From a virus, in UHGV virus genome UHGV-1369668: a stretch of DNA of 39,121 nt. One strand, 5' to 3'. The notes under the pieces are model-generated. The model worked only from the letters and a program-made list of their open reading frames with translations. It ran no database searches and was not told where the DNA came from. The translations under genes were made by a program, and so were the position numbers. Positions 3,567 to 34,846 of the stretch are shown here, one piece after another. Each line of letters opens with the position of its first letter. The first letter of the stretch is position 1.

Positions 3567-4486
3567 TAAATCCACCCACTTTCGCTCTTAATCTCTTCCG
3601 CCTTGCCGTTTATCGCAGTACTTTGTAATCTTTCAAACGCGACTTCAAACTCATTCCTGTACTGTGTGGCAATTGAGATATCATCCTCTTTATATAGCTG
3701 TGAAGCCATATAAAGCGGTAATATTGCAGCCACTTCTCTGTCAAGCGATAATTCATAGCTATCCTCTGTTCCACTTGTTATTGTTGGAGGTAGTGCATTG
3801 TAATACACTATGTAATTACCTGGGACTTCTCTATCGAGGGCAAGTACCTTATCACCCTCTTGGTAAACCTCATCCGTCTTAATATATCGTGTATTTTGAA
3901 TATCGCCTTCAAAGTAGATTGAATTAATCGAATGAAAATCATCAACAATATCCGGCATACGAAATCTGACTTTTTCACAATAATCCGGAACTAAGCCTGG
4001 CTCTGTAAATTTAGACCTGTATAACGCAATATTCTTTACTGAATATGGATATTCCGAATCGAATACTATAGTTACAGGAAGCTGTTTTTCATTGTTTATC
4101 AATCCCTTAAACGGCGTATACTTATTTATGCTATCGATATCAACAATTTCTACATAATCTCCTGCTGAAATTGTGGCAGTGCACTTTCCCGTAGCTTCAA
4201 AGTAATATGACCTAGCACGTTCTCCGCTAAATATCATTTCACCGCTTTCTTTCAGATGGATTTTTCCGCCAGTCTCTTTGCCTAAGATATTTGGTATAGG
4301 GTTAATTGAAATAGACACGCTCTTAACCAAAAACTTACCTGCCGTCGAAAGCATTAAAATACCTTCGTTTGCTACCTGTGGCATTGCAGCCAAGTAGTCC
4401 CTTGTACTGTCGTCTGTCGGGATAGTGCTTCCATTTGCACTAAACATTTTCTGTATGGTTGCTAATTTCAATTCTTCCCATGTCAT
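3566..4486 (-). CDS. Virion structural protein (306 aa; head-tail adaptor/tail candidate)
   Basis: Tightly coupled in the late operon downstream of the capsid gene and a 96-aa gene. Function assigned by synteny only. Confidence 0.4.
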   Translation of the reverse strand: MTWEELKLATIQKMFSANGSTIPTDDSTRDYLAAMPQVANEGILMLSTAGKFLVKSVSISINPIPNILGKETGGKIHLKESGEMIFSGERARSYYFEATGKCTATISAGDYVEIVDIDSINKYTPFKGLINNEKQLPVTIVFDSEYPYSVKNIALYRSKFTEPGLVPDYCEKVRFRMPDIVDDFHSINSIYFEGDIQNTRYIKTDEVYQEGDKVLALDREVPGNYIVYYNALPPTITSGTEDSYELSLDREVAAILPLYMASQLYKEDDISIATQYRNEFEVAFERLQSTAINGKAEEIKSESGWI

Positions 4487-4489
4487 AAT

Positions 4490-4780
4490 TTATAACTCCA
4501 ATTTTTCGATAATAGCCTTCTTAATAGCAGAACCGCTTGTCGCTTCAATTCCATATTCACTAGCCAACTTCTTTAATTCAGTAATTGTCATTCTATTAAT
4601 CTGTGTCTTAGTGTATTTCTTGATTTCTGCTTTTTCTTCCAAAAGCTCATCTTTTTCCACAAGCTTCTTGCATTCAACTCTCTTAGAAATATAATTACCG
4701 TCTTTTAATACGCGGATAATCTCATAAGTTGAACCGCAATCTCCAAATGTGTCACCTATTTTTAGATTCTTTGGTATCAT
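4490..4780 (-). CDS. Small protein with a C-terminal Rho-N/SAP-like domain (96 aa)
   Basis: The C-terminal TITELKKLASEYGIEATSGSAIKKAIIEKL resembles the Rho N-terminal/SAP helix-hairpin often found in small phage head-associated proteins. It lies directly after the capsid gene. Confidence 0.45.
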   Translation of the reverse strand: MIPKNLKIGDTFGDCGSTYEIIRVLKDGNYISKRVECKKLVEKDELLEEKAEIKKYTKTQINRMTITELKKLASEYGIEATSGSAIKKAIIEKLEL

Positions 4781-11453: not shown

Positions 11454-11778
11454 GCTTGTCACCTTTCTACCCTTTTGTTTTTCTTCACCAGTACCATACA
11501 AAAAAGGCAACCACCTTATTTGGTGGCTACCTTCTTGTTAGGGGTACAATGGTGTTTTTAGCAATTAACCAATTTTATTAATAACATACTAAAAAAAAAA
11601 TATATATGGCTATTTGGGGAAGATTGCCCATTTTTTGCCCGTTTTTGCACGATTTGTTGAAACTGCACAAAAACTCATTTTGACTTTTGTGAACTTTTGC
11701 CACTTGCACTACTGGTATCCCAGTGTTAAGATAAAGGCACAACGAAGCACAAAACAACAAGTTGAAAGGAGCACGAAA

Positions 11779-12687
11779 ATGAAGAAAGATGTTTACGAAA
11801 TAGTTACAGAAAGATTTTTGGAGAAGCTTGAACAGGGCATTATCCCTTGGAAAAAACCTTGGAAAATGGTCGGCGGTGCTTTTCCGGCTTATCCTCTTGG
11901 AAGTAAAAAGCCATACGGATTTATTAACCAGATGTTACTCGATTTTGAGTATGGAGAGTTTGCTACTTTTGAAACTATCAAGAGAAACGGCGGCAAGGTT
12001 AAGAAGGGTGAAAAGTCAAGACTTATCGTTGGATGGATTCACACCACCGAAAAGATAAAGGATGAGAACGGCGAAACGGTCGTTGACGATGATGGCAATG
12101 AACAATATAAAGACAGATTCGCATTGAGATATTATCAGGTATTTAACGTATACACACAGGTTGAAGGGCTTAAGGACAACATCGATATAGAGGACGAGAC
12201 AAGCGCACTAATCGAGTCGGATTTTGTTCCTGGAGATGCTTATCAAATGGCAAATGATATTATCGTCAATTATACAGATAGAGAGCAAATCTCGTTCAAC
12301 AATGGCGATATATCAAACAGGGCTTATTATCTTCCTTCTGCTGATTCAATAACAGTCCCGAATATGTCCCAGTTCGAAGATGTTAACAAGTATTATAGTA
12401 CCGTTTTTCACGAGATGGTTCACTCAACAGGACATCAATCGAGGTTAGATAGAGAACTCGAAAAGAAGGCAGCTCACGGATCTAAGGAATATAGCCGAGA
12501 GGAGTTAGTCGCCGAAATCGGATCCGCCGCATTAATGAACATCTGCGGAATAGAGAACGAAGACACTTTCGAAAATTCGGCTGCTTATATTCAAAGTTGG
12601 TCGAAAGCTCTTAAGGACTCGCCCAAAATGATAGTATATGCTAGTGCTCAGGCACAAAAGGCAGTCGAGTATATTATCGAAAAATAG
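11779..12687 (+). CDS. ardC: ArdC-like antirestriction protein (ssDNA-binding N-domain plus HExxH metalloprotease domain)
   Basis: The N-terminal IPWKKPW...YYQVFNV motif region is typical of the ArdC-N/DUF1738 fold. A C-terminal HEMVHSTGH zincin motif is present. The RBS GAAAGGAG precedes ATG 11779; the track's N-terminal extension from 11614 lacks an RBS and is rejected. Confidence 0.7.
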   Translation: MKKDVYEIVTERFLEKLEQGIIPWKKPWKMVGGAFPAYPLGSKKPYGFINQMLLDFEYGEFATFETIKRNGGKVKKGEKSRLIVGWIHTTEKIKDENGETVVDDDGNEQYKDRFALRYYQVFNVYTQVEGLKDNIDIEDETSALIESDFVPGDAYQMANDIIVNYTDREQISFNNGDISNRAYYLPSADSITVPNMSQFEDVNKYYSTVFHEMVHSTGHQSRLDRELEKKAAHGSKEYSREELVAEIGSAALMNICGIENEDTFENSAAYIQSWSKALKDSPKMIVYASAQAQKAVEYIIEK

Positions 12688-16879: not shown

Positions 16880-17296
16880 TTACACTCCTAAATATTTGTT
16901 TAACTCAACTATCCCTTCATCAATCAGCATATTCAAATACCTCATTGCGTTTATCTGAACATTCATATCCCACTTGTTCTCAATGCTCTTTGCATCATAA
17001 AACTTATCAAAGCGATAATGGCACATGCCTTCCCTTGAAGTAAAATGATAATCTACTTTACCATTCTTCTTATTAAACCCAATCCAAAACTCATCTTCAT
17101 CACCATAGAAGCCACCACCATTTGAACCTTCCAAGTGACAATACCATTCACCGGTTTTCTTCATCGCTTCGTTATACCAGGTATGTTTTTTTAGTTTATC
17201 CCAATCTAATACTTTGAGTTTCATAATGTCCTTGGGATTAATGTTGTATTTGTTTGGAACGGCTTTAATTAACTTAAAATCTATATATTTATTCAT
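16880..17296 (-). CDS. Hypothetical protein (138 aa)
   Basis: Coupled ORF. No motif recognised. Confidence 0.4.
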   Translation of the reverse strand: MNKYIDFKLIKAVPNKYNINPKDIMKLKVLDWDKLKKHTWYNEAMKKTGEWYCHLEGSNGGGFYGDEDEFWIGFNKKNGKVDYHFTSREGMCHYRFDKFYDAKSIENKWDMNVQINAMRYLNMLIDEGIVELNKYLGV

Positions 17297-17308
17297 GTTT
17301 ACCTCGTC

Positions 17309-18219: not shown

Positions 18220-19066
18220 TTACCCTATAAAATCAGTAATACTCATTTGTGCATAAACAGGAAAATCAAGCATTTCATTCTTTGCCCTTGTATAGAAATT
18301 TCTATCGATTTCAAATCCAAATGCGCTTCTTCCAAGATTATGTGCTGCTCTTAATGTGCTACCTGAACCACAACATGGATCAATTACAACATCTCCTTCA
18401 TCTGTAAAAATATTAATTAACTGTTCTAATACTTTCACTGGCTTTTGTGCAGGGTGAATCTTTGGAATCTCTTTACCATCTTTTTCCCACTTGAACCAAT
18501 TGAATATCATGTGTCCTGTCCCCCTGATGTTTTTTCCTTCTTCATCAACCTGACAACCATTTCTAAATTTTGGAAGTCTATCTCGGTACAAAACAAGCGC
18601 ATATTCTGTTGCACCGACAATCCTCATATTTGCTTTCAAAACCTGCGGTGAATAATTCTTAATAAACACAAGCGGAATATAATTCACAAATCCATGTTTT
18701 TTTTGCTGCATCAATCAATGTTTGCATCTGTTCAAATGCACAAAATACAATCATGCATGGTGAATTGCTGCTTCTTCCTCTCTGTAATGGTTTGGTATCA
18801 TCTTTCTTTAGCATCTTGCTGCAGAAATGAAAATATTCATACAGATTAAAATTAAAATCTGAATTAAAAGCAGATTTTCCTGCAAGTTTGCTTTCTCCAT
18901 TTTTATTGTCACCACCTATATACCATGAAGGATTGCTTCCATAGAAATTCGTTCCTACATTATATGGAACATCTGCAATAATAAGCTGTGCAGGTGGTAT
19001 TGCATATTTCTTGTAATTCTGCATTGAATCACGATATATTTCACATTTGATTTTCTTTTGTTTCAT
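18220..19066 (-). pseudogene. Beta-class (CcrM/Hia5-like) N6-adenine or N4-cytosine DNA methyltransferase, frameshifted in an A8 homopolymer
   Basis: The upstream ORF has motif IV (IIADVPYN). The downstream ORF has HPAQKP and motif I (VIDPCCGSGST). The two overlap by about 56 nt. Removing one A from the A8 run at about 18697-18704 fuses them into a protein of roughly 281 aa. Confidence 0.75.
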
Positions 19067-19215
19067 CTTTCACCTCTCTAAATTCTTATCAAGCTTACAT
19101 TTCCTTTAACTTCTGCTCAGCTTCGGCTTGCGTGAGGAATATGGTTCAACTGATTAAACACACGCGTGCGTTTATCGTGCGTTTATCGTGCGTTTTTGTT
19201 CCCTTTGAAATTTCT

Positions 19216-19521
19216 TCAATGTTCTATCTCATAAAGGCTTAGTTGTTCACTCCAATCAATAGCCTGTCCGCAACCTGCACAAAATTTATTCAAGTATTCA
19301 TCCATTCCTACCCAACCGCCACAAATAGGACACGCAAAATATTCTTGAAGCAGTTTGTCTGTTGATTTCATCTCAACAGGCTTTTTCGGTATCTGCTTTT
19401 CAAGTGCTTCCATAACCATGTAGTTTTCTTCAACATCAAATCTATCCATAATTCCAAAGTTTTCTTTTTGTGCTTTTACTTTCTGTAATGCACTTTTTGT
19501 GATTTCAACTTCTCTTATCAT
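19216..19521 (-). CDS. Zinc-ribbon protein of the KQIPKKP...CPxC...CxxCGQ.IDWSE family, copy 2 (101 aa)
   Basis: ALEKQIPKKP...CPICGGW...CAGCGQAIDWSE. Confidence 0.5.
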   Translation of the reverse strand: MIREVEITKSALQKVKAQKENFGIMDRFDVEENYMVMEALEKQIPKKPVEMKSTDKLLQEYFACPICGGWVGMDEYLNKFCAGCGQAIDWSEQLSLYEIEH

Positions 19522-19545: not shown

Positions 19546-19797
19546 TTATTCACTCCAATCCAATTTTTGACCGCAAAATTCACAGTAACTGCTACCAGCA
19601 CAATACCAAGTTTCGTACTGGCTGTTATTACATACAGGACATACATTATATTTTGTAATCTTCTTCGGTATCTGCTTATCAATCGCCATTGCCGACAATT
19701 CCAACGCTTCTCTGTAATCTGCAATATTATCATTGTAATTTGCTTTGATAAGGTCTATTCTCTCGTTGATAAATTTTAATGCTTCACTCTCTGTCAT
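19546..19797 (-). CDS. Zinc-ribbon protein of the same family, copy 3 (83 aa)
   Basis: MTESEA...AIDKQIPKK...CPVCNN...CEFCGQKLDWSE. About 25 bp at each end of the gene is identical in DNA to copy 1. Confidence 0.5.
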   Translation of the reverse strand: MTESEALKFINERIDLIKANYNDNIADYREALELSAMAIDKQIPKKITKYNVCPVCNNSQYETWYCAGSSYCEFCGQKLDWSE

Positions 19798-27807: not shown

Positions 27808-28260
27808 ATGGAAAATTTTGGCAAAAACTTAAAGCGAATTAGAACTAATAAACTATTATCACAAGAGGCATTAGCTTCTACTATGCAAATGACACAAGCA
27901 AATATTTCGTCCTGGGAAACAGGCAGAACAGAACCTTCTATTAGTGATATATACAAATTGAGTCAAATATTGGAATGTACCATTAGTGAATTGACAGGCA
28001 CAGAACAGCTTGGACGAAGCAATACACTCTCTGATGATTCAAATACTTTAGAAAGTCCATACGACCGTATTTTACAATTGTCAGATAAACTAACAAGTCA
28101 AGAACTAATAAGATTACAGAAGTTATTTAAGATTAAAGCTGAATATAAGCAAAATCTCGAACAATTGGAACAGCAAAAGCAACTATATGAAGAAGAGTAC
28201 AAAAAGCACACAAGCGATTTCTTGAACGGATATAGGCCTAAAAAGGATGGATTTATATGA
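27808..28260 (+). CDS. CI-like XRE-family repressor (about 150 aa)
   Basis: HTH LSQEALASTMQMTQANISSWETGRTEPSISDIYKLSQIL. Divergent from Cro and adjacent to the integrase. Confidence 0.65.
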   Translation: MENFGKNLKRIRTNKLLSQEALASTMQMTQANISSWETGRTEPSISDIYKLSQILECTISELTGTEQLGRSNTLSDDSNTLESPYDRILQLSDKLTSQELIRLQKLFKIKAEYKQNLEQLEQQKQLYEEEYKKHTSDFLNGYRPKKDGFI

Positions 28261-29246
28261 AAATAGAAAAAGTAGGGAATCAGTTCCGAGTACGAAAAAT
28301 GATTAATTGTATAAGGTACACCATGACTTTTGATCATGAGCCAAAGCAAAGTGAGATAAAACGCGAATTGTCGCGCTTAATGCGTGAGCAGCCAAAAGAC
28401 GATACGCCAAAGGGTACTTTTGAATATTATGCTAAAAAGTATATGCAAATACAGGATAATATATTGTCACCATCAACACTTCGATCGTATGGATTTATAT
28501 TAGATAAGTTAAGCAGTGAATTTAAGCGAAAACAACTTAAAGATATTACTCAGGCTGATGTACAGGCAGAAATAAATATAATTGCTAAAAACAAAAGTCC
28601 TAAGACAGTTCGTAACAATCACGCATTCATATCAGCTGTTATTAAAATGTATCGCCCTAATTTAATACTGCATACCAAATTGCCTCAGAAAATCAAGAAA
28701 CAAAAAACAGTTCCATTAAGGGATGATATAAAGGCAGTTTTAGATGAGGTTAGAGATACAAGATATTATATTCCTTATCGCCTTGCCATATATGGCCTAA
28801 GAAGGGGCGAAATTTGCGCGATAACGGCCCTTGATATATCTGATGCCAATATTCTTACCATAAACAAAGATAAGGTCTATAATGGCGAAAAAAAGTGGGT
28901 AATTAAGCCATATCCCAAAACCACCGATTCTCAAAGGGCCATATACATTGATAATGAGCTTGCTGATTTAATAAGAAAACAAGGTTATGCTTTTAACGGG
29001 CACCCTTCCAGACTGTACGATAATCTTAAACATGTACAGGATAGACTTGGCATCGAGCGGTTTAGATTCCACGATTTCAGGGCGTATATGGTAACAGAGC
29101 TTTCACAAGCCGGATATTCAGAAGCGGATATTATGAAAATGGGCGGATGGTCTACACCTAATATTATGAAATCCGCGTATCGTCAATCTCGTATCCAAAA
29201 GGAACTCGAAACACAGAAAAACATATCCTCTACACTGACGTTATAA
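28257..29246 (+). CDS. int: Tyrosine site-specific integrase
   Basis: 329 aa. The C-terminal catalytic region has R...HDFRAY...GGWSTPNIMKSAYRQ (the R-H-R-Y family pattern). Followed by attP. Confidence 0.85.
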   Translation: MKIEKVGNQFRVRKMINCIRYTMTFDHEPKQSEIKRELSRLMREQPKDDTPKGTFEYYAKKYMQIQDNILSPSTLRSYGFILDKLSSEFKRKQLKDITQADVQAEINIIAKNKSPKTVRNNHAFISAVIKMYRPNLILHTKLPQKIKKQKTVPLRDDIKAVLDEVRDTRYYIPYRLAIYGLRRGEICAITALDISDANILTINKDKVYNGEKKWVIKPYPKTTDSQRAIYIDNELADLIRKQGYAFNGHPSRLYDNLKHVQDRLGIERFRFHDFRAYMVTELSQAGYSEADIMKMGGWSTPNIMKSAYRQSRIQKELETQKNISSTLTL

Positions 29247-29455: not shown

Positions 29456-29551
29456 CTATAAAGTCAATAATTTCAAGGCTTTTCAGATTTTTGACAAATT
29501 TTTTGACAAATTTTTTTTTTTGAAAAGCACTTCTAAGACTCTGTTTTTACA

Positions 29552-32500
29552 TCATTTGCTAAGAACCACTATATCATTATAGGATTTCAAGATGTCGCTC
29601 TTGCTTGTTCCGTTCTGTTTGTACTTCTTAGGTATTTTGCCATTATTCTGTTCAAGCAATATGTCATACTTTTGCTCTGTAGTAAGATTGCTCTTTAGAA
29701 GTACGGGTACCCATTGTTTCATTTTGGTGTACTGTTTTATTTCGTTATATACCTTAATTTCAGCATCAGTATGTCCTTCAGTTGCATATTCAATAACGGA
29801 CTGCTTAGCATTATTAATTCCTAATTCTGCTAAATGCTGTTCGGCATCATCTTTTGCAAATTGCTCTGTAAAGTAATTCATTAGGGCATCGGTACCACCC
29901 GAGTTGTATATGTTATAAGGCTTGTTAGTTGATGTAAACTCTTCACTGACAGCACTCTTTCCGCTATCTGAAGCGATAGTTGATACACTCTTAAGGACTT
30001 CATTTTTCTGTTCATTTGAAAGATTATTAAACACTTCATTCTTTGCCAATTCATTCCTAATCTTTGCGTCAGTGCTTCCTGCTACTTTCTGATATTCAGT
30101 ATATGTCTGCGGATCTAATTTATCTCCACCGATTTTAACGTTAGTTTCTAGCTTAGGCAAGGCTCCCTTGTCCGCTATTTTCTGACCGTTAGTATTCTCA
30201 GAATTATATACATCTCTGGTGGCCCGATAGCCTTCATCTGTCTGAAGATTACCAATATATGCCGGCGAAAAAAATTGATAAGCCGCATTTGCAAAAGTGC
30301 TATCGAACGGACTATTATTTTGTGTCTGTCCCTTCATATCAATATACGGCTCATTTTGGGCACTTAAGAACGGAATCTTGTTTTCAACTTTGTTAAGTTG
30401 TCTTTTGTAAATAGCATCTAATCCAGTTGCATCTGTATATGTTGATCTCCTTGTCGGGTCAACAATTCTTGCAATCTGTCCGCCTACTGTAGGTATAGCC
30501 TGTGTAGCATAACTTGCAGCCATGTTTGCCAATCCTGTGACTGCTGCCGACGCTACATTCTCACCACTATTAAACGCGCTTGATACAGACTGCATAGCGT
30601 CCGCAATACCAGATAACATTGATGTCTCAATAATAGGACTTATAAGATTACCGGTTGAGTCAAGTATTGTTCTGAGACCATTCTCTTTATTAAATACTTG
30701 TCTTATATCCCCGCCGCTCTCTTCCACAACCTTTGCAAGCTGTGCGCCTAGTAATAACGGCATTACACCGGGTGCCGCCCAATCAATACTATAAGACTTA
30801 TCATTCATGTTAATAGCATAAGTCTGGTTTCCTTCCTGCGCATCCATCTTGGCTGTATCACCGTCATTAATATGTACGATACCTTTATCAAACAGATAAT
30901 ATCCAAGATAAGCTAGTCCGGTTCCTGTAAGTGTTTTGCTCCAACTTTCAATGACATCCGAAGCCGTTGCTTTTCCAGTCATTAGTTTTCCTGTTTTTGC
31001 AATACTTGAAACAGCCCCTAAAGGCGAATAATCAACACCACTTCTTAATACGTTTGCCGGCGTTTTCTTGAATGGTATTAGTCCTTCAATCAACATATGT
31101 CCTGCCGTAGCTCCGGCAGTTCCTTCGTTTTTCAGTTTTGTGCTAGTCTCTGTTACAATCCTAGCAATTGCATTATCCTCATGAAATGTTGAATACTCTG
31201 CCTGCGCTTTGGCATATTCTCTTGCCTTGTTAAGCACTTCAATATCAGACGGATTTTCGCTTTCGAATATGCTTGCATCATATCCATTTGCTTTCAACCA
31301 ACCCGCAAGGGAAGTAGAATACTTTTTCCTTACTGCCGTATAATCAGATATACCTTTATCAACGAGGTCGCTTGCTTTTCTTAAAATCTTACTATCAAAC
31401 GTATCTTTATTTCTGTCAAGTCCTTGCTTAAGATTATCACTATACTTAGTGCCATTAAGCTGACGATACATTTTTGTATCTGCATCATTTCTACTTGCGT
31501 CAATCAGCTTTGAATCACTAATAGGATTCAGGACTGATTTAGTACGCTGAATGCGCCCACCGCTGACTTTATCAACACCACGCTCAAGCAAAGCCGCTAA
31601 AGTATTTGATGTCCCTGTTATAAATCCGAATATATTATTACCTAAATAATTTCGAATCATAGTTTTGGGGTTTCCAAGCATAGCAAGGTATCGCCAAGCT
31701 TCGAATTTATCAAATAATGATGACTTTCCGAGGTCATTTGCCACAAGCCTGAGCGCATCTGCCTCAGCATCAACATATTCCTTTGAGTTTTCGTCAAGTC
31801 CCTGTATGCTTTCGAAGATATCATTAACAGCTTTCATGGTATCTGGCTTCACGCCGAATGTTCCTGTTGCCATTTTAATATTCAAGAAATCTTTTATGTC
31901 TCTTGTTGTAGCTCCCTCGTTCAGCAGATTAGCAATGAAATCAATATCGCCATCGCTAAACTGATTTCTTATTGAGGACGACTCTTTTGCCAACTCTTCA
32001 TTAATGATATTTTTAAGTTCGTCAATTGTAGGCTTATAAACATCTGTTGTTGCAGCTGCTTCAGGCGCATCTTTGCCCATTTCTGATAATGCTGTGGCAA
32101 ACCTTTTATCAAGTCTATCACTAAGGCTCTGTATGCTCTTTGAATCTCTTATATGAGTTTTTTCCCACGTCTTAGCTTTTGAATTAAGGATATTATATGC
32201 ACTACTTTCAATGCCCTGTGCGGTGTGTCTCGTCCATTTAGCTGTGGACTGCAGTACTCGACCGGCATTACTTACTGAAGAGTCTAATTTCTTTATTAAC
32301 AGTACCCTTTGAGTATTTAACCTTGTTGCGGAATTGATATCGCCATTTGCGATTGCATCATCATACTGCGCTGACAGATCGTGCGCACTAAGCATTATCT
32401 TATCAACCCCAACATTACTGCTAATATCCTCTTTATCATTTATTACAGCTTTTACAAATTCATTGCGCTTTTCCACTGTATCAAGTGCCTTGGACGCAGC

Positions 32501-34846
32501 GTCAAGAGTATCAATCTCGTGTTCAACATAGTGTTTATTAAAGGCATCTAACGTCTGCTGTGAAATGCCTCTATAAATACCGCTCCTCTTGGCTGTATTA
32601 GTAATCGTCCTCGACTCTGCCATATCATTAGTAGGATTTTCATTTACAATAGGCATGCCAACTTTTTTAGTACCGACGGTATCATCAATAGCAGACGTTT
32701 CGTTGGTCTGAATATCATTTATTATGTTGCTATCGTTATTTGTATTTCCAATAACATCTGTTAACGTACCATTATTGAGTCTCGACTCATACCCCGATAA
32801 AACGTCATCAATTTCAGATTGAAGCTGCGTATCGAAGATATCGTTAAATCCAAAGACATTATTAAACCTTTCACCCTCTAAAGAACCGCGCTTATAATCC
32901 TGTGACAGTTCTATTATCCTTGCTATTCCATCAGAGTTGACTCCATTAAATTCACCGAGCTCACCGATTTGACTTTGTAACACTGGCCATAGGTCCGACT
33001 TATCTAATGGAACACCAACATTTGGGTCTTTCGTAAACAAATTCCTACCGACCGCATTATTCATAGCTCTTACAGTGTCGTATGTATTAATATCGTTTAA
33101 GTCGGCATCAGTCACAAGAATTTTGTATCCGTCTATTGTATCTAATAAACGCTTTCTGAATGTCTTATACGTATCCTTTGCATCATTTACCAGAAGATAG
33201 CCATTTTGAAGCAAGTCTTTTATCTCTTTATAGGCAGAGTTGATTTCACTTCTTGTCGCATCTATATCTTCCTTTCTTCTGATATTATCAATACCGTCTA
33301 CAGCCCTTGAAAATCTTGCCACCGCATTATTAAATGCCGCCTTATCTTCTTTACTATCAAACTTAAGAGCTTTCAAATTATCATTACGAATGTATGAGTT
33401 CGCAACTCCCCTCATAGAATTTTGGGTAGAATAATCATTAATATCATTTGCGATATTATTATTTGTCTGTATATTATCGACAATAGGTTTGTCGCTAATA
33501 TTATCAGCCTTATTGTAGTTACTATTTGAATTAATAATTGCATTGGCTGACTGATTGGTTGGTGCTTCAATAGTTTGTTTGTTTGAATTAATATTTGTTA
33601 CTGACGACATATCATCCAACTCTTTATCCAAATTTACAGTATTGCTCTGTGACTTTGACAATATCTCTGAATCTATCTGATTGGTAATCTGATTTCTTGG
33701 TATATCATCAGAATTGCGAATCGCATCACTAATAACGTTGTCTGCATTAGTTTCAATATTAAGCTTTGACGATACGTATTTACTGATTGGCTTGAGTGCC
33801 ATAGAACCACCTGCAAAAACACCTCCCATTGCTGCGCCTGTTGCTACAGACGACAATATTCTACTTACAGAGTTTTTATTGGCATAGTTGCGCGCTTCTT
33901 CCTCTGATAATCCGTTCGATAACGCCTCAGAATAGTCCTTAATTCGCTGTGAATTATCTTTGTTGATTAAACTATCAAGCAACTCCTGAGAGCCCGATTC
34001 TAGCCCTTCTTCTAGCCCTTCTGTAAGCGCACCTGCGCCAACATTCTTTGCAACGTCGCCTAATCCCTTAATTGTGGAAGAACCTAGCTTGTTGTTAATT
34101 ACATCTATTCCTTTTGCCTGCAATAATCCGCCAACAGTTCCGCCGGCTAAACCATAGGCAGAAGCTTGTCTGTTATTAGCTCCGTTTTCCTTCGCAAGAT
34201 TATATAACTCACCTGATGTATTACCGCCCGCTGTAATTCCAGACAATAAGGCACCGCCAACAGCCGAGCTTCCTAACATCTCAGCAACATTTGTGCCGAT
34301 ATCATAAACCATGTTTCCGGCATTAGAGTTAATATTTGATTTTGCTCCCTCTTTGATATTTGCTCTCTGAATAGCAAATCTATTTGAATTATTACCGTCT
34401 ATTGCTCCCGCCGTATTTTCAACTGCACTTCCTATTGCGCTAATCGGAGCTGTGATAGTGTTATATACGGTTGATAATACGGGGTGTTCGGAAGCAAACT
34501 TGCCCGATTTTGTAAGAGAAGCCTGTCTTTTCTGTCTTGCTATGTTGTCGCTTCGATTGAGTACTTTATTAGCGTTGCTATCGGTTATTGCTGTAAGGTC
34601 GCTTCTAGCTGAGCTTAGAGTTGCGTTATTGCGCATTGCGGACGGCGATATAACCTGTGTTCCTTTAGGAACGACTTGCGTATTAGCTGTACTTAAATCA
34701 ACCGACTTCGCGTTATTATTTTTTTTGAGCGCAGGCAACTCTCTATACTTCGGTGTAGAAGTTGAAGAGGCGGCTTTTTTTACCGCCTCCGCCTTATCCA
34801 TTTGCCTCTGTGTTTCTTCAACCTGTTTAAGAGTGAATTTAGGCAT
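29552..34846 (-). CDS. Giant protein (1764 aa) with Gly/Ala-rich hydrophobic segments; candidate internal-virion/ejection or tape-measure-like protein
   Basis: It is the last gene before attP. It is translationally coupled to the upstream 349-aa gene through TAAGGAGATAATAT-ATG. Segments such as MLGSSAVGGALLSGITAGG, SSVATGAAMGGVFAGGSMALKP and GTAGATAGHMLIEGLIPF resemble TMP / T7 gp16-type membrane-penetrating regions. No enzymatic motif recognised. Confidence 0.4.
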   Translation of the reverse strand: MPKFTLKQVEETQRQMDKAEAVKKAASSTSTPKYRELPALKKNNNAKSVDLSTANTQVVPKGTQVISPSAMRNNATLSSARSDLTAITDSNANKVLNRSDNIARQKRQASLTKSGKFASEHPVLSTVYNTITAPISAIGSAVENTAGAIDGNNSNRFAIQRANIKEGAKSNINSNAGNMVYDIGTNVAEMLGSSAVGGALLSGITAGGNTSGELYNLAKENGANNRQASAYGLAGGTVGGLLQAKGIDVINNKLGSSTIKGLGDVAKNVGAGALTEGLEEGLESGSQELLDSLINKDNSQRIKDYSEALSNGLSEEEARNYANKNSVSRILSSVATGAAMGGVFAGGSMALKPISKYVSSKLNIETNADNVISDAIRNSDDIPRNQITNQIDSEILSKSQSNTVNLDKELDDMSSVTNINSNKQTIEAPTNQSANAIINSNSNYNKADNISDKPIVDNIQTNNNIANDINDYSTQNSMRGVANSYIRNDNLKALKFDSKEDKAAFNNAVARFSRAVDGIDNIRRKEDIDATRSEINSAYKEIKDLLQNGYLLVNDAKDTYKTFRKRLLDTIDGYKILVTDADLNDINTYDTVRAMNNAVGRNLFTKDPNVGVPLDKSDLWPVLQSQIGELGEFNGVNSDGIARIIELSQDYKRGSLEGERFNNVFGFNDIFDTQLQSEIDDVLSGYESRLNNGTLTDVIGNTNNDSNIINDIQTNETSAIDDTVGTKKVGMPIVNENPTNDMAESRTITNTAKRSGIYRGISQQTLDAFNKHYVEHEIDTLDAASKALDTVEKRNEFVKAVINDKEDISSNVGVDKIMLSAHDLSAQYDDAIANGDINSATRLNTQRVLLIKKLDSSVSNAGRVLQSTAKWTRHTAQGIESSAYNILNSKAKTWEKTHIRDSKSIQSLSDRLDKRFATALSEMGKDAPEAAATTDVYKPTIDELKNIINEELAKESSSIRNQFSDGDIDFIANLLNEGATTRDIKDFLNIKMATGTFGVKPDTMKAVNDIFESIQGLDENSKEYVDAEADALRLVANDLGKSSLFDKFEAWRYLAMLGNPKTMIRNYLGNNIFGFITGTSNTLAALLERGVDKVSGGRIQRTKSVLNPISDSKLIDASRNDADTKMYRQLNGTKYSDNLKQGLDRNKDTFDSKILRKASDLVDKGISDYTAVRKKYSTSLAGWLKANGYDASIFESENPSDIEVLNKAREYAKAQAEYSTFHEDNAIARIVTETSTKLKNEGTAGATAGHMLIEGLIPFKKTPANVLRSGVDYSPLGAVSSIAKTGKLMTGKATASDVIESWSKTLTGTGLAYLGYYLFDKGIVHINDGDTAKMDAQEGNQTYAINMNDKSYSIDWAAPGVMPLLLGAQLAKVVEESGGDIRQVFNKENGLRTILDSTGNLISPIIETSMLSGIADAMQSVSSAFNSGENVASAAVTGLANMAASYATQAIPTVGGQIARIVDPTRRSTYTDATGLDAIYKRQLNKVENKIPFLSAQNEPYIDMKGQTQNNSPFDSTFANAAYQFFSPAYIGNLQTDEGYRATRDVYNSENTNGQKIADKGALPKLETNVKIGGDKLDPQTYTEYQKVAGSTDAKIRNELAKNEVFNNLSNEQKNEVLKSVSTIASDSGKSAVSEEFTSTNKPYNIYNSGGTDALMNYFTEQFAKDDAEQHLAELGINNAKQSVIEYATEGHTDAEIKVYNEIKQYTKMKQWVPVLLKSNLTTEQKYDILLEQNNGKIPKKYKQNGTSKSDILKSYNDIVVLSK

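Follow-up and report, generated by a model that had tools for sequence, protein, structure and literature searches.

Phase-variable methyltransferases are known from phasevarions, in which the length of a simple sequence repeat in the coding sequence sets the enzyme on or off, as in the Type III mod and Type I hsd genes of Haemophilus, Neisseria, Helicobacter, Streptococcus suis and others. These are chromosomal Type I/III restriction-modification genes of small-genome pathogens, and their tracts are long and conserved (tetra- or pentanucleotide repeats, poly-G). In phages, orphan methyltransferases help to evade host restriction, and prophage-borne ones can reprogramme the host epigenome. PamA of Staphylococcus aureus is a prophage methyltransferase whose expression could change the lysogen phenotype, and the review that treats it does not describe it as phase-variable (PMC13076061). 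Prediction of phase variation at poly-A/T tracts with PhasomeIt uses tracts of at least 10 (PMC6321876). A different outcome is rescue by transcriptional slippage, as for tssM1 of Citrobacter rodentium (A11) and for poly-A genes of endosymbionts, where a gene broken at an A run is corrected at the RNA level.

The DNA analysed here (the window, 39,121 nucleotides) is nearly all of JGI contig Ga0495776_009952 (39,240 bp) and belongs to a temperate phage with an integrase, an HTH repressor, RecT, a DnaC-like loader, terminase and portal genes and a 1764-aa tail-region protein. Among its small early genes lies a minus-strand DNA methyltransferase gene that is interrupted at a run of eight adenines (A8; Table 1). 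Since the phage is temperate, the methylase could plausibly act against restriction, and like PamA it is a prophage-borne enzyme whose expression could alter the lysogen. A sister lineage carries an uninterrupted A7 run at the same codons and resembles the phasevarions in showing in-frame and out-of-frame lengths on the same background. In contrast to the phasevarions, the gene of the window and of the sister lineage encodes an orphan Type II-like beta-class enzyme of temperate gut phages, and its tract is only A7, lineage-specific and avoided in the family. Homopolymer switching of methylases is already known; the setting, a short tract in a phage orphan beta-class enzyme, is new.

Table 1. 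Positions of the methyltransferase gene, its motifs and neighbouring features in the window
Feature	Position	Strand	Remark
Whole split beta-class PF01555 DNA methyltransferase gene	18220-19066	-	281 aa if A7
N-terminal ORF read from A8	18659-19066	-	135 aa; TAA stop 18659-18661
A8 homopolymer, frameshift site	18697-18704	-	T8 on plus strand; A7 and A10 in frame
C-terminal coding part, +1 frame	18220-18702	-	KKHGF... to stop; holds HPAQKP and DPCCGSGST
C-terminal open frame	18220-18714	-	164 aa counted from TTG
Second, shorter A run (A6)	18530-18535	-	codons Gly-Lys-Asn; in frame in window
IIADVPYN	18959-18982	-	
Catalytic motif IV, DVPY	18962-18973	-	inside the 135-aa ORF
HPAQKP	18439-18456	-	
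DPCCGSGST	18355-18381	-	
Shine-Dalgarno-like GAGAGGTG	19071-19078	-	few bases 5' of ATG 19066-19064; read from sequence
11-bp unit GTGCGTTTATC, ~2.9x in tandem	19166-19197		
Terminator-scan mark	19176-19192	+	
Zinc-ribbon gene 1	19216-19521	-	phrog_10714
Zinc-ribbon gene 2	19546-19797	-	phrog_10714
A10 run	11591-11600		
ArdC-like anti-restriction gene	11704-12687	+	intact
Other T8 runs	13566, 34719, 36203		in frame, within intact minus-strand ORFs
Integrase	28257-29246	+	
T11 run	29511-29521		
1764-aa ORF	29552-34846	-	

The A8 run covers gene positions 363-370 and spans Ala-Lys-Lys codons (GCA AAA AAA plus one). The 135-aa product consists of residues 1-123 followed by a 12-aa out-of-frame tail, TWICELYSACVY. 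One A fewer (A7) gives a single ORF of 281 aa and two more (A10) give one of 282 aa, while the A9 version terminates four codons on at ...AAKKNMDL*. The ORFs, the PF01555 match and the motifs themselves thus bear out the earlier note, which had described a beta-class methyltransferase split at A8 whose protein of about 281 aa is repaired by deletion of one A. The AdoMet-binding motif I, DPCCGSGST, falls outside the N-terminal ORF that holds the catalytic motif IV. Because the catalytic and cofactor-binding motifs lie in different frames, the A8 allele is predicted to have lost methylase activity. The putative ribosome-binding sequence GAGAGGTG supports the annotated methylase start. A run of eight is ordinary for the window (38% GC), which has 16 runs of seven A/T, four T8, one A10 and one T11, and the run in the methylase is the only such run that disrupts a gene.

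In beta-class methyltransferases, a circular permutation places motif IV (D/N/S-P-P-Y/F type) N-terminal to the AdoMet motif I (FxGxG type). The repaired protein matches the Pfam profile PF01555 (N6_N4_Mtase) over residues 27-262 with an E-value of 7e-26 and 91.9 bits (cut-off 26.7), and the alignment spans profile positions 2-220 of 221. The motifs follow the beta-class order, with DVPY at residues 32-35 and DPCCGSGST at residues 229-237, both invariant in 20 relatives. The DpnA/M1.HpyAVI-type N6-adenine methyltransferases (PDB 5HEK/5HFJ) share with the window enzyme the PF01555 domain, motif IV before motif I, and HP(A/T)QKP. Similarity to solved and curated enzymes is weak, as the nearest solved structure, a DpnA-type enzyme, scores only E 9e-15 and all NCBIfam scores fall far under their cut-offs; with respect to target specificity, the PDB and NCBIfam comparison gave no close characterised homologue. 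The label 'CcrM/Hia5-like' given earlier is not sustained, since the CcrM equivalog model NF050803 reaches 44.9 bits against a cut-off of 830 and aligns to residues 200-265 only. On the best reading, the gene lies in the early region of a temperate gut phage of Firmicutes type and encodes an orphan beta-class DNA methyltransferase (N6-adenine or N4-cytosine).

The nearest annotated phage gene is gp48 of Ruminococcus (gnavus) phage phiRM10, which has 76% nucleotide identity confined to the methylase. It resembles the window gene in PF01555 membership and in the kind of early-gene neighbourhood. Unlike the window gene, gp48 is intact and has no A run, and the same is true of nearly all relatives. 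No match was obtained when 24 kb of the window were compared by megablast with 50,697 phage records. Genomic relatives are chiefly from Lachnospiraceae and other gut Firmicutes, and intact homologues, over 100 in number and about 281 aa long, share 86-94% amino-acid identity.

The exact 135-aa product was called on six contigs, all of which carry A8 and are 99.96-100% identical to the window DNA. They come from JGI 3300045988, ERZ27229646, ERZ2661659 and three runs of the Fiji cohort PRJNA217052, and the assemblers behind them were MEGAHIT (k119/k127), SPAdes and that of JGI. Five SNPs clustered at 17218-17301, about 1 kb downstream, separate the strains in ERZ2661812 and ERZ960288 from the window, so that more than one micro-haplotype carries A8. 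Look-ups through both flanking genes, in which the state of the methylase plays no part, returned only A8 contigs or contigs that end before the run, and the tract is A8 in six of the six window-lineage contigs that reach it. An exact look-up in a collection of about 15 billion proteins found no window-lineage product with A5, A6, A7, A9, A10, A11 or A12, a search that misses alleles with any additional change. Tract-tolerant scans with the exact flanks of the window gave nothing in IMG/VR and, in JGI metagenomes, only a distant AAA-AAG relative (L180) and an unrelated locus (L181). A8 is fixed in every sample where the window phage was assembled, at the level of assemblies, which are consensus sequences in which length mixtures within a population are invisible.

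A sequencing or assembly error, with a true A7 genome and an intact gene, had been allowed for in the earlier note. Homopolymers are error-prone on some platforms, and several of the supporting contigs are thinly covered (e.g. about 2.6x). However, A8 is the unanimous result of six independent assemblies (JGI, at least three ENA submissions and separate Fiji runs) made with different assemblers, the exact A7 protein does not occur in the protein collection, and the reading frame is kept at each of the three remaining 8-base runs in genes of this contig. We therefore regard an error as highly improbable. Judged from this allele, the corresponding methylation should be missing from the phage DNA in all samples where the gene has been seen.

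JGI 3300045988 yields the window, the A6 (L198) and A11 (L212) alleles of the sister lineage, and dozens of intact relatives (many of L012-L081). It holds more than 130,000 numbered viral contigs and is probably a catalogue-type compilation and not one sample; co-occurrence in it is therefore likely to be uninformative on any single population.

The frameshift is the sole lesion in the window methylase. The window allele shows no departure at any of the 130 columns whose conservation reaches 95% among 134 distinct intact relatives, compared with a median of one departure among the intact relatives themselves. The dN/dS ratio against intact relatives is about 0.03-0.06 in both halves (0.025-0.07 in the C-terminal half), with dS saturated, and Lys-Lys-His at the junction is invariant among the relatives compared. 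These values speak against the decaying pseudogene that had been proposed as one possibility; the further disabling mutations expected beside A8 in a dead gene did not appear in the conserved-column comparison.

Under plain loss of function, a one-off +1 insertion would have struck a dispensable accessory gene, the allele would be a young pseudogene heading for decay or deletion, and changes in tract length would have no role. The window lineage shows only A8, the run is not conserved and is avoided across the family, and the phage has a second, intact anti-restriction gene of the ArdC type. Frameshifts at other sites occur in the relatives P0131, P0132, P0176 and P0230, and L213 has two lesions, as expected if the methylase is often dispensable. 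On the other side, constraint on the window gene is not relaxed and no second lesion is present, and the very strong purifying selection on the family argues that the enzyme is not generally dispensable. Changes at the run of the sister lineage are repeated, go in both directions and regain the frame at A10, which goes beyond one-way decay. We consider plain loss of function possible, at well below even chances.

The natural variation at the run is seen in the sister lineage. One of its loci, L198, has an A6 frameshift at the same codons as the window, on an unrelated phage backbone that shares only the methylase. Lengths read from DNA in this lineage are A6 (six loci), A7 (10), A8 (four), A9 (two) and A11 (one). 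In the exact look-ups and the retrieved DNA, A6 is out of frame (P0151 on 7-14 contigs, P0156, P0228 and P0229), A7 in frame (P0166 on 91 contigs, P0168 on 33 and P0169 on 15), A8 out of frame (P0181 on 3-6 contigs, P0182 and P0159), A9 out of frame (P0164 and P0232), A10 in frame as KKK (P0231, one 41-kb contig) and A11 out of frame (P0153). Two backgrounds are distinguished by residue 10, which is Ser in background S and Asn in background N, and background N covers A6 through A11. The alleles found on single contigs (A10, A11 and the A9 of background S) could be errors. By a rough tally, with counts drawn from different tables, about 30 contigs are out of frame and about 140-160 in frame. 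In the L193 lineage, A7 occurs on 15 contigs and the predicted A8 fragment on one.

Contigs of the sister lineage with A6 and with A8 show no SNPs relative to A7 contigs over 1.84 kb of flank, in two haplotypes. This identity indicates that the A6 and A8 changes each arose at least twice, and slippage at the run of the sister lineage accordingly reads as recurrent and bidirectional on the sequences compared. The shorter A6 run in the same gene also varies, with -1/+1 variants in the relatives P0132, P0176 and P0230 and A5 in L213, at about ten times fewer variants than the Lys-Lys run, a dependence on length that slippage would be expected to show. Where members of the family have an unbroken A7 at the Ala-Lys-Lys codons, the run thus appears to be a natural slippage hot spot, with recurrent length variants in both directions in otherwise identical genomes. 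The A8 of the window lies under the cut-off of at least 10 used for prediction (PMC6321876), yet the homologous A7 run still varies in nature, and A/T runs below the usual cut-offs can therefore be polymorphic in phages. L213 (Logan SRR12459427) combines A9 at the Lys-Lys run (~1860) with A5 in place of A6 at Gly-Lys-Asn (~2030), and its net reading is out of frame.

ON and OFF lengths on one background, which are the criterion for phase variation at simple sequence repeats, are present in the sister lineage, whereas the window lineage shows A8 alone. Because several lengths on one background were not found in its own lineage, the window is not placed among the phasevarion systems.

Across the family the run is rare. 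In about 135-140 relatives the codons at the site are almost always AAG-AAA or AAG-AAG, and an uninterrupted run of at least six occurs in only about 1-3 of about 140 distinct relatives, in lists of related loci ranked by a score that favours intact genes. The first Lys is AAA in 13 of 55 cluster representatives, compared with a background of 57-60% (p ~5e-8, a statistic that ignores phylogeny). Similarly, AAA-AAA is used by 7 of 91 alleles at the run site and by 58 of 133 at the Lys-Lys of residues 87-88, a difference with a small p that ignores shared ancestry. The family tends to lock the run site by AAG. The tract conserved among homologues that is a further criterion for repeat-based phase variation was not found among these relatives, since the run is present in few of them and AAA is depleted at the first Lys. 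Rarity and avoidance of the run in the family argue against an evolved switch.

A scan of IMG/VR for A8 with degenerate flanks returned no matches. The scan for an uninterrupted run found intact A7 in L193 and L190, in addition to L011 found earlier, and the frameshifted A6 of L198; most other A7/A6 pattern matches were unrelated DNA, the methylase being present in L190, L193 and L198 only. L148 was rejected as a frameshifted copy because its break is a scaffold gap of Ns. The short 'N-terminal' cluster members P0123-P0127 were also set aside as an unrelated small methylase drawn in through P0128. P0128 (349 aa, three contigs) is an apparent fusion of the methylase described here, through DPCC, with a small unrelated Dam-like methylase (...DPCCTHETAKC...NPPY...), and arose either by true recombination at DPCC, which both proteins have, or through chimeric assembly. 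It is because of P0128 that unrelated proteins fall in one 90% cluster.

A full-length enzyme might also be made from the A8 gene by recoding, through slippage of the RNA polymerase or a +1 shift of the ribosome on the A run. Transcriptional slippage occurs mainly at A/T runs, with a frequency that rises exponentially with run length and with +1 insertion as the dominant event (PMC5574713), and an A11 run rescues tssM1 at about 20-25% (PMC4256274). The gene is otherwise pristine, and little protein may suffice for a methylase. However, the run of the window has only 8 nt, compared with A11 in tssM1, and restoration of the frame needs -1 or +2 nt, whereas the favoured +1 gives A9 and a stop after four codons. 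The AAA-AAA-ACA site has no Shine-Dalgarno-like stimulator and no slow or stop codon, and the two-frame arrangement is not conserved. The rest of the family reads in one frame, and split copies elsewhere are explained by a different length of this run or, in L148, by the gap. Recoding therefore seems very unlikely. A split enzyme was considered and rejected. The C-frame ATG just 5' of the run is a by-product of the Leu-Ile-Asp-Ala codons and lacks a Shine-Dalgarno sequence, the next ATG (MRIVG) would lose residues 124-146, and the sequence contains no convincing ribosome-binding site for separate translation of the C-terminal part.

The A run in this phage orphan methylase is probably an accidental on/off site that is prone to slippage, and the window carries its OFF allele. 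According to this explanation, an A7 run (GCA-AAA-AAA) would arise by synonymous drift, and replication slippage would then add one A in the window lineage, changing A7 to A8. Slippage would yield out-of-frame alleles often enough for them to recur in nature, and such alleles would be tolerated, and sometimes favoured, as the methylase is an accessory gene. Translation of A8 would give the 135-aa fragment with DVPY but without the AdoMet-binding motif, and no methylation would follow. The result would be a population-level contingency site that behaves much like phase variation, with the window allele OFF and one step from A7. The OFF state could be of benefit by escape from methylation-dependent restriction, or because protection is needless in the current host. 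We infer the slippage mechanism, the reversibility in the window lineage and any selective benefit.

Phase variation, as the earlier note had it, is supported only indirectly: the sister lineage has A6-A11 with recurrent changes, but the window lineage has A8 only and the run is avoided in the family. A stronger form, in which short poly-A runs within orphan methyltransferase genes serve the temperate phages of gut Firmicutes as true phase-variation switches and the A8 of the window is a selected OFF state, appears unlikely. If it were true, lysogen and virion populations would be mixes of methylating and non-methylating variants, which would hedge between hosts with classical (methylation-blocked) and with methylation-dependent restriction, and the lysogen could show phasevarion-like epigenetic heterogeneity.

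The accidental on/off site that we prefer would also have consequences. If activity flips through a 7-base run, the host range of gut phages and the methylomes of their lysogens would be heterogeneous, and this heterogeneity would be hidden by consensus genomes and annotation pipelines because the gene is called as two fragments. A homopolymer frameshift is in itself ordinary; the natural A6-A11 series makes switching of a phage methylase directly testable, and its occurrence across dozens of public metagenomes offers a natural system in which to measure switching and selection.

Several features near the methylase deserve description. Directly upstream lie two paralogous genes for small CxxC...CxxC zinc-ribbon proteins. 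The tandem GTGCGTTTATC repeat, part of which is marked by the terminator scan, lies within the 149 bp that separate the zinc-ribbon gene from the methylase start; it might serve as an operator, or as a terminator of the upstream gene. Near the homologous methylase, phiRM10 has an annotated 'Lar family restriction alleviation protein'. In many IMG/VR relatives (L034, L035, L042, L043, L045, L052, L053, L081 and others, at ~4270-4520), a second ORF about 430 nt downstream of the methylase matches its C-terminal 80 residues with 38-40% identity, pointing to a tandem second methylase of PF01555 type; this second gene is absent from the window.

The ArdC-like anti-restriction gene contains ArdcN and MPTase-PolyVal domains and matches phrog_7245 ('anti-restriction protein') with an E-value of 4e-70. 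It stands on the strand opposite to that of its neighbours, and an A10 run is located about 100 nt upstream of its ATG. This run is long enough to be a candidate for a length-variable tract in the promoter or leader. The longest homopolymer in the window is the T11 run between the integrase gene and the end of the 1764-aa ORF, possibly within an attachment or terminator region.
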